A DNA stretch of 64,000 nt, taken from assembly GCF_003334315.1 (NCBI RefSeq), contig NZ_QOWR01000005.1; one strand, given 5' to 3'. Position numbers and translations under genes: made by a program. This stretch comes from Escherichia coli (GTDB taxonomy: Bacteria; Pseudomonadota; Gammaproteobacteria; Enterobacterales; Enterobacteriaceae). Of the stretch, positions 24,642 to 24,747 are shown piece by piece (the first letter of the stretch is position 1; each line of letters starts with the position of its first letter). Below the pieces are notes generated by a model. That model saw nothing but the letters and a program-made list of their open reading frames with translations, had not been told where the DNA came from and did not search any database.

Positions 24642-24747
24642 TCACCCTGTGTGACGTCGATTCGGGCGTCACGCTCTCTCCTTTTTCATTTTACCTTCTG
24701 CGGAGGGTAGGGGGAGCTTTTACCTGAAATACGCCACGGAGGCGGGT

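Follow-up and report, generated by a model that had tools for sequence, protein, structure and literature searches.

The eutM-eutN spacer of Escherichia coli as a possible structured boundary inside the ethanolamine operon

Introduction

The protective structure between malE and malF was reportedly identified as a REP element by Newbury et al. in 1987. In the pufBALMX operon, an 'mRNA decay terminator' sets the antenna to reaction-centre stoichiometry, and operon-internal leaky intrinsic terminators are found in E. coli at rplL-rpoB and rpsU-dnaG. The malEFG operon serves as the paradigm of the protective type: a 3' structure in the RNA between malE and malF stops exonucleases that arrive from the 3' end, and intercistronic hairpins of pufBALMX from Rhodobacter capsulatus are listed in the same work (PMC5927463). 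In model A of Dar and Sorek (2018), a downstream gene of low ribosome density lies behind a 3' protective structure; the downstream segment is cut by RNase E and degraded by 3' exonucleases, and the hairpin bars their entry into the upstream part (PMC5927463). A hairpin at the end of talB was shown by Term-seq to form a genuine in vivo 3' end without a U-tract (PMC7815308).

The spacer between eutM and eutN of E. coli holds an element that is unannotated here and of a familiar operon-internal kind, best compared with intercistronic stabiliser hairpins. As at malE-malF, a stable stem-loop directly follows the cistron whose product is in excess, and REPs fill the homologous eut slot in Salmonella, most Klebsiella, and several Citrobacter. 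Unlike the malE-malF structure, the eut hairpins of E. coli do not belong to the REPs and are single-copy, and stabilisation of the eutM mRNA by them is a prediction. The cases of Dar and Sorek share with eut a conserved hairpin between a highly and a poorly translated gene and a structure kept between related species; most of theirs lie inside the downstream coding sequence, whereas the eut hairpins are intergenic. The eut operon is missing from their set because it was unexpressed under their conditions. As in pufBALMX, hairpins past the genes of abundant subunits would fix the stoichiometry of an assembly post-transcriptionally; organism and sequence differ, and the downstream genes eutE, eutBC, and eutL are still well expressed. 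Like the leaky terminators, the locus has a GC-rich intercistronic hairpin with some U after it, the second eut hairpin being followed by UUUU, but the eut U-tract, short or interrupted, is not conserved, and the RNA downstream does not step down in induced cells. The talB hairpin, AGCGUGACCG...CGGUCACGCU with the C/U-rich tail ACCUCUUCU, comes close to the first eut hairpin; it stands at the end of a transcription unit, whereas the eut hairpin stands in mid-operon (PMC7815308).

The locus and its spacer

The window, the whole stretch of 64,000 nucleotides that was analysed (RefSeq assembly GCF_003334315.1, contig NZ_QOWR01000005.1), is a segment of E. coli chromosome with an intact eutSPQTDMNEJGHABCLKR operon on the plus strand. 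In the part from 29814 to 32590, the end of eutA (31217) directly adjoins the start of eutB (31229), so the operon is uninterrupted and lacks the prophage-interrupted arrangement of K-12. The K-12 operon differs by the prophage CPZ-55 (yffL-yffS, intZ) after eutA. The 801 bases around the spacer match many E. coli genomes at 100 % identity and are annotated there as pta(eutD)-eutM-eutN-eutE. The eutM gene ends with TAA (24639-24641), and the checked coordinates of the two genes (Table 1) give the spacer of 106 nt that a preliminary description of this DNA had claimed. The minimum-energy fold of the whole spacer has -43 kcal/mol (z -3.2).

Table 1 Features at the eutM-eutN junction, numbered along the window
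Feature	Position	Strand	Basis
eutM coding sequence, BMC-H shell protein of 97 aa	24348..24641	+	ORF, translation, RefSeq annotation of identical DNA
Hairpin 1, 10-bp stem, loop GAUUCG	24649..24674	+	Energy, z, covariation
Hairpin 2, interrupted stem, loop UGCG	24676..24716	+	Minimum-energy fold, alignment, RNAalifold
UUUU run and invariant motif ACCUGAAAU	24718..24730	+	Alignment, tail score
eutN ribosome-binding region, GGAGG at 24738-24742	24732..24744	+	Folds, alignment
eutN coding sequence, vertex protein of 95 aa	24748..25035	+	ORF, RefSeq annotation

No feature is annotated inside the eutM-eutN spacer in RefSeq genomes, and none of the covariance models of Rfam 15 matched positions 24000-25400 on either strand at E values up to 10. 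A consensus scan found no promoter on either strand of the spacer, which contains no ATG except that of eutN itself, and a full-text search of the literature found no description of an element in it. When the minus strand of the spacer was read by eye, a lone TAAAAT without a -35 sequence and a 35-codon frame starting with GTG were seen.

The two hairpins

In hairpin 1, positions 24649-24658 pair with 24665-24674, with two G.U and six G-C pairs and a loop of 6 nt. The 6-bp stem noticed at first, gtgacg (24651-24656) with cgtcac (24667-24672), is indeed present 9 nt past the eutM stop, but its length was understated, as it is the core of a 10-bp hairpin. The conserved 8-bp core, GUGACGUC/GGCGUCAC, contains this stem. 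Hairpin 1 folds at -17.4 kcal/mol (z = -4.79), a stability that 0 of 200 shuffled sequences reached. Equal stability is reached in only 0.047 % of the 26-nt windows on both strands of the 64 kb, with 11 sites on the plus strand.

In E. coli, hairpin 1 begins 7 nt past the eutM stop, and the core begins 7-10 nt past the stop codon in all taxa that share this hairpin. The front edge of a terminating ribosome would lie roughly 7-10 nt past the stop codon. By this estimated footprint, a ribosome terminating on eutM would barely disturb hairpin 1.

The window has two matches to GTGACG…CGTCAC, the second being an unrelated stretch of 45 nt. The CGTCAC in codons 6-8 of eutN was considered as an alternative partner of the 5' arm and rejected, because it is present in species with REP-type spacers and absent in Buttiauxella and Yokenella, which bear the hairpin. 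A repeat family or REP was likewise rejected as the identity of the spacer: no match to the REP consensus (…GCCGGATG…CTTATCCGGCCTAC) with up to two mismatches lies in 24642-24747, and the spacer is single-copy, with a median of one place per genome across 5408 E. coli genomes.

The preliminary description had seen a T-rich tract, ctctctcctttttcatttt, after the stem as the tail of a terminator. The tract exists; it is not a free tail and forms the 5' arm and internal loop of hairpin 2, in which its partner is GGAGGGUAGGGGGAG; the minimum-energy fold and the RNAalifold consensus agree in this. In hairpin 2, the CU tract at 24676-82 pairs with GGGGGAG at 24710-16 as the outer stem, followed by a 9-nt internal loop (UUUUCAUUU, 24683-91) and an inner stem of 24692-98 with 24703-09; in the minimum-energy fold, CUCUCCU and UACCUUC are thus paired to GAGGGUA and GGGGGAG. 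The first 8 nt past the stem of hairpin 1 alternate between U and C (4 U of 8), and a run of five U comes 9 nt out.

Directly past hairpin 2, UUUUACCUGAAAU is invariant in 16 spacers of Escherichia, Citrobacter, and K. spallanzanii. Its core, UACCUGAA, is also found in Buttiauxella and Entomohabitans, about 20 nt upstream of the Shine-Dalgarno sequence of eutN; the second hairpin of these two genera differs in sequence. From its sequence, the segment 24718-24730, which holds no promoter match, is a possible weak terminator tail or RNase E-type site (GC/UUUU fits RN/WUU). A repeated site, UACCUGAAAU, was rejected since it occurs once in the window.

The GGAGG of eutN lies within a small hairpin, CGCC-ACGGA-GGCG, and is invariant in the alignment. 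Unguided RNAalifold returned this hairpin over the Shine-Dalgarno sequence together with hairpins 1 and 2.

Conservation and replacement of the hairpins

Conservation and covariation of the hairpins, a structured spacer at every eutM-eutN junction, and the replacement of the hairpins by REPs are seen directly in the related loci. A single scan of 100,044 species genomes with EutN as query gave 48 loci, 42 of which have eutM directly upstream. The eutM-eutN spacer is never tight in these 42 (median 110 nt, range 52-211), with 38 nt at the eutD-eutM and 11 nt at the eutN-eutE junction. Folding is strong in each of the 40 distinct spacers, with -0.34 to -0.53 kcal/mol per nt (median z -2.2). Three classes of filler were found. 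Class a, with a GTGACGYC…GRCGTCAC hairpin, comprises 24 loci in six genera (Escherichia, the Citrobacter freundii complex, Klebsiella spallanzanii, Buttiauxella, Entomohabitans, and Yokenella). The 14 loci of class b carry REP/BIME palindromes and belong to Salmonella, K. pneumoniae, K. oxytoca, K. michiganensis, K. grimontii, C. koseri, C. amalonaticus, C. sedlakii, Pseudocitrobacter, and Pluralibacter; in these loci the REP motif maps to the eutM-eutN spacer only, and matches to the REP consensus were found in the homologous spacer of 13 other species. Other GC-rich hairpins make up class c, with four loci from taxa further removed (Intestinirhabdus, Pseudomonas, and two Rhodocyclaceae).

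All eight core pairs of hairpin 1 are formed in 18/18 aligned sequences from six genera. Compensatory changes were observed at two of them, G-C to A-U at one and C-G, U-G, and U-A at the other. The covariation score of 0.131 compares with 0.089 in column shuffles, 0 of 500 of which reached 0.131, and with at most 0.105 when the structure was slid along the alignment. Hairpin 2 is absent outside Escherichia, Citrobacter, and K. spallanzanii. In 16 sequences, pairing holds in 98-99 % of its cells and in at most 63 % when the whole structure is slid, and two inner pairs vary on both sides in a compensatory way. RNAalifold added a covarying basal pair, which is G-C in Escherichia and C-G in Citrobacter.

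Within E. coli, as sampled, the polymorphism G24666A turns a U.G pair of hairpin 1 into U-A and thereby strengthens the stem, C24681A and G24714C strike the outer stem of hairpin 2, T24699C and T24689G sit in loops, and C24767T sits in the eutN coding sequence. From these positions, constraint seems to act on hairpin 1 and on the inner portion of hairpin 2, and less on the outer stem, whose polymorphism counts against the boundary reading given below.

It could be argued that the spacer has no present function and is an old gap that collects palindromic filler (REPs and remnants of hairpin elements), the conservation reflecting short divergence. REPs colonise intergenic gaps in general, and nine REP-like matches are found elsewhere in the window, among others in the eutG-eutH spacer; REPs enter whatever gap is available, and finding them in the eut slot is hence no proof of selection. 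Many stem positions of both hairpins never vary and are uninformative either way, and IS911 sits in the spacer of one E. coli strain. We nevertheless regard a functionless gap as quite improbable. The gap is retained in Enterobacteriaceae as well as in Pseudomonas and Rhodocyclaceae despite an otherwise compact operon, the spacer is kept in 5407/5426 E. coli genomes, and the loop of hairpin 1 ranges from 4 to 20 nt across the six genera, with no conservation of its sequence, while the stem stays paired through compensatory changes. The element is probably functional and tied to the differential expression around eutM and eutN.

In E. coli strain 90-1 (NZ_CP050047.1, positions 1592-2870 of the extracted locus L055), IS911 lies immediately past hairpin 2, with the junction …GGGGGAGCTTT, IS911, CTTTTACCTGAAAT…, a natural split of the hairpins from eutN. 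Three of the loci retrieved (L018, L032, and L043) lie on contigs of 269-466 nt filed under Gemelliphila, Prolixibacteraceae, and Caballeronia and encode an EutN 87-100 % identical to that of E. coli; REP motifs are present on the contig of L018 as well. These assemblies seem to be contaminated with enterobacterial DNA.

Possible termination at the spacer

The preliminary description took the stem and tract as a partial intrinsic terminator. Such a leaky Rho-independent terminator inside the operon would lower the transcription of eutN and of all genes downstream, and it would lie either at hairpin 1 with its U/C tail or, with greater plausibility, at hairpin 2, whose covarying basal pair abuts the UUUU run. 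With its GC-rich stem and short loop, hairpin 1 has the stem-loop of an intrinsic terminator (about 5-14 bp), and it ranks first among the terminator-like matches in a 16-kb scan, in which such matches as a class are not enriched (22 vs 19.7 expected). Its tail in E. coli, UCUCUCCU, has 4 U of 8 and thus lacks the U-tract of 7-9 nt. By the tail score of d'Aubenton-Carafa/TransTermHP, in an own implementation, hairpin 1 reaches 2.0 in E. coli, 0.7 in Citrobacter, 1.4 in Entomohabitans, 0.08 in Yokenella, and 2.0-3.6 in Buttiauxella, in which 6 of 8 tail nucleotides are U; canonical E. coli terminators from a published Term-seq table score 5-5.7. Hairpin 2, which ends in a G/C pair followed by the invariant UUUUACCU, has a borderline score of 3.24 with U4 only, contains the 9-nt internal loop, and is restricted to three groups of taxa as described above. 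Mapped 3' ends with similar or poorer tails do exist, at nhaA (UUUUCAUUG, 3.75), degP (2.44), sokC (2.28), and talB (0.44). No U-rich tail was seen in the REP-type spacers when these were read by eye, and together with the tail scores this indicates that the hairpin is conserved and the terminator tail is not. An intrinsic terminator at hairpin 1 is thus not borne out: its tail is poor, unconserved, and engaged in hairpin 2.

In published Term-seq data of E. coli, mapped 3' ends are found at REP hairpins. In the Term-seq set of E. coli grown in the non-inducing media LB and M63 glucose, the only 3' end at this place is an antisense one inside eutM (PMC7815308); a sense 3' end of eut is missing since eut is uninduced in these media. 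The antisense 3' end is located in the 3' part of eutM, at about 24581 of the window on the minus strand (MG1655 2572217 +; PMC7815308), about 11 nt past a small hairpin, GGGAAGACUUCUUCC. Given this location, its transcript must cross the spacer or begin in it.

Expression of eutM, eutN, and their neighbours

For E. coli K-12 W3110 growing with ethanolamine and B12, the relative protein abundances were EutQ 100, EutM 96, EutL 39, EutB 37, EutE 27, EutC 24, EutS 11, EutD 10, EutK 8, EutP 7, and EutN 1 (PMC11334477). The contrast between an abundant shell protein and a low-copy vertex protein, to which the idea of a terminator had been tied, is therefore real and amounts to about 100-fold in E. 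coli (PMC11334477). A terminator cannot make EutN rare, because EutE, EutB, EutC, and EutL, which are encoded downstream, are 24-39-fold above it. Proteins encoded upstream of the hairpins also differ widely (EutQ 100, EutD 10, EutP 7), which shows that translation alone can yield such ratios.

For strain LF82, RPKM values in minimal medium/bile salts were eutT 13/83, eutD 108/357, eutM 55/177, eutN 5/62, eutE 14/149, eutJ 13/147, and eutG 35/168, and eutB was at 358 upon induction (PMC6379400). The eutN RNA is thus below that of both its neighbours (PMC6379400). The drop from eutM to eutE is 3.9-fold in uninduced and 1.2-fold in induced cells, values that are thin evidence since induction was weak and strand-specificity is unstated. 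In the uninduced cells, the fall from 108 and 55 (eutD and eutM) to 5, 14, and 13 (eutN, eutE, and eutJ) is what a terminator would give; the induced RNA shows no downstream drop, with eutM at 177 and eutE, eutJ, eutG, and eutB at 149, 147, 168, and 358. The table argues against a strong terminator, and an enrichment of eutM mRNA is not evident in it.

The induced RNA and the abundance of EutE, EutB, and EutL downstream mean that termination must be weak and cannot account for EutN at 1. Termination at the spacer is at most weak, and a leaky terminator is a rather unlikely account of the element. The claim that the hairpin sets the ratio of EutM to EutN fails on the same data, as the downstream genes are well expressed and the RNA drop is only 1.2-3.9-fold. 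What is supported of the original interpretation is a strong, conserved hairpin directly past eutM in an unusually long spacer; the terminator mechanism at this hairpin and the setting of the ratio by it are not. With downstream expression maintained and the RNA drop small, most of the about 100-fold difference must be specific to eutN, arising in its translation or in the stability of its segment.

Translation of eutN

The spacer might act on translation alone, either by insulating eutN from ribosomes on eutM or by bearing a regulator site, with no role in 3'-end formation or decay. The proteins stand at about 100:1 and the RNAs at about 3:1, which implies that control is mainly at translation. 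The Shine-Dalgarno sequence and start region of eutN, set in the small hairpin, are near-invariant across genera (CGGAGGCG is common to 34/42 loci and the remainder have GGAGG, GGAG, or AGG variants), the slot accepts any stable hairpin, and eutN-eutE is tight at 11 nt, eutM-eutN never. Candidate regulator features are the CU-rich tract, which is anti-Shine-Dalgarno-like, GGAGGG and GGGGGAG as Shine-Dalgarno-like decoys, and CsrA-type GGA motifs about 36 nt apart. Against this stands that the CU/GA hairpin is missing in REP-type spacers, where EutN is presumably low too, that the fold of the eutN start region is of ordinary stability (z -0.14), and that a bare spacer would uncouple the genes as well, leaving no explanation for why hairpins of such strength were selected. 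A purely translational role is considered improbable. Occlusion of the eutN start region, considered separately, is unsupported by the same z value.

The two GGA motifs, at 24699-24704 and 24736-24740, lie in or beside loops, namely UGCG-GA of hairpin 2 and the ACGGA loop of the Shine-Dalgarno hairpin, and form a candidate dual CsrA-like arrangement. That the two-hairpin module and the invariant UUUUACCUGAAAU are a dedicated regulator-binding or processed RNA can be given hardly any chance.

A proposed structured intercistronic boundary

The reading that we favour, by analogy and with a probability of roughly 0.4, sees in the eutM-eutN spacer a conserved, structured boundary between cistrons like that at malE-malF, with 3' protective and uncoupling roles. 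The eutN cistron would be very poorly translated, and its mRNA segment would thereby be open to RNase E. After cleavage in the tail of the spacer or in eutN, 3'-to-5' exonucleases would be halted at hairpin 2 and hairpin 1, and the eutM message and the segment upstream would be spared. The folded spacer of 106 nt would also bar ribosomes coming to the end of eutM from initiating anew at eutN or from unfolding its start region, and would so allow a protein ratio of about 100:1 from neighbouring cistrons. Uncoupling is needed if these cistrons are to differ about 100-fold in protein and only about 3-fold in RNA. The part played by the RNases, the uncoupling, and the effect size are all inferred.

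A stable stem-loop 3' of the cistron in excess within an operon (EutM 96 vs EutN 1) is what a decay barrier calls for. The structure is, moreover, kept in relatives with pairing-preserving changes, and structured fillers are present in 42/42 loci. The low eutN RNA, together with EutN protein at 1 vs 96 for EutM, fits model A of Dar and Sorek. The steady-state RPKM values are mixed (eutM 177 vs eutN 62, eutD 357, and eutE 149) and give no stabilising effect on eutM.

A wider reading, which we put forward tentatively, is that selection has kept a structured boundary past the gene of the major shell protein, by convergence, as a device of eut microcompartment operons. Hairpins of at least three unrelated types (the two-hairpin module, REP/BIME, and GC-rich hairpins) might then have been recruited to one slot in gamma- and beta-proteobacteria, and the device might separate the eutM message and its translation from a deliberately starved eutN cistron. 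If so, REPs in the eutM-eutN slot would be functional parts of the control of organelle stoichiometry, and the locus would offer a clean case of unrelated hairpins, REPs included, that are interchangeable in one functional slot.

The ratios of shell proteins determine the proper closure of bacterial microcompartments, and loss of EutN leads to elongated structures (PMC12487888). Rebuilding of Eut shells in other hosts usually omits the native intergenic DNA. If the boundary helps to hold the ratio of about 100:1, it would be a compact natural part for the control of stoichiometry; if the spacer has no measurable effect, the difference of about 100-fold must lie in the translation of eutN alone. 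The relevance is mainly to microcompartment engineering, besides a tidy case of substitution between REPs and a unique hairpin.

Other palindromes in the region

The eutG-eutH spacer (116 nt, 28475-28590), the second long one in the operon, contains a BIME of two inverted REP elements, with motif matches at 28500-28513 (+) and 28526-28539 (-). E. coli thus uses REPs there and a unique hairpin at eutM-eutN. A K-12 record has four REPs in a eutG-eutH spacer of 216 nt, and eutH is about 3-fold above eutG in the LF82 RNA-seq data. A perfect 26-nt palindrome, GCTTACCCTGAATATTCAGGGTAAGC, with -18 kcal/mol on both strands and no T-rich tail, lies at 20731-20756, just past maeB and about 240 nt upstream of eutS.
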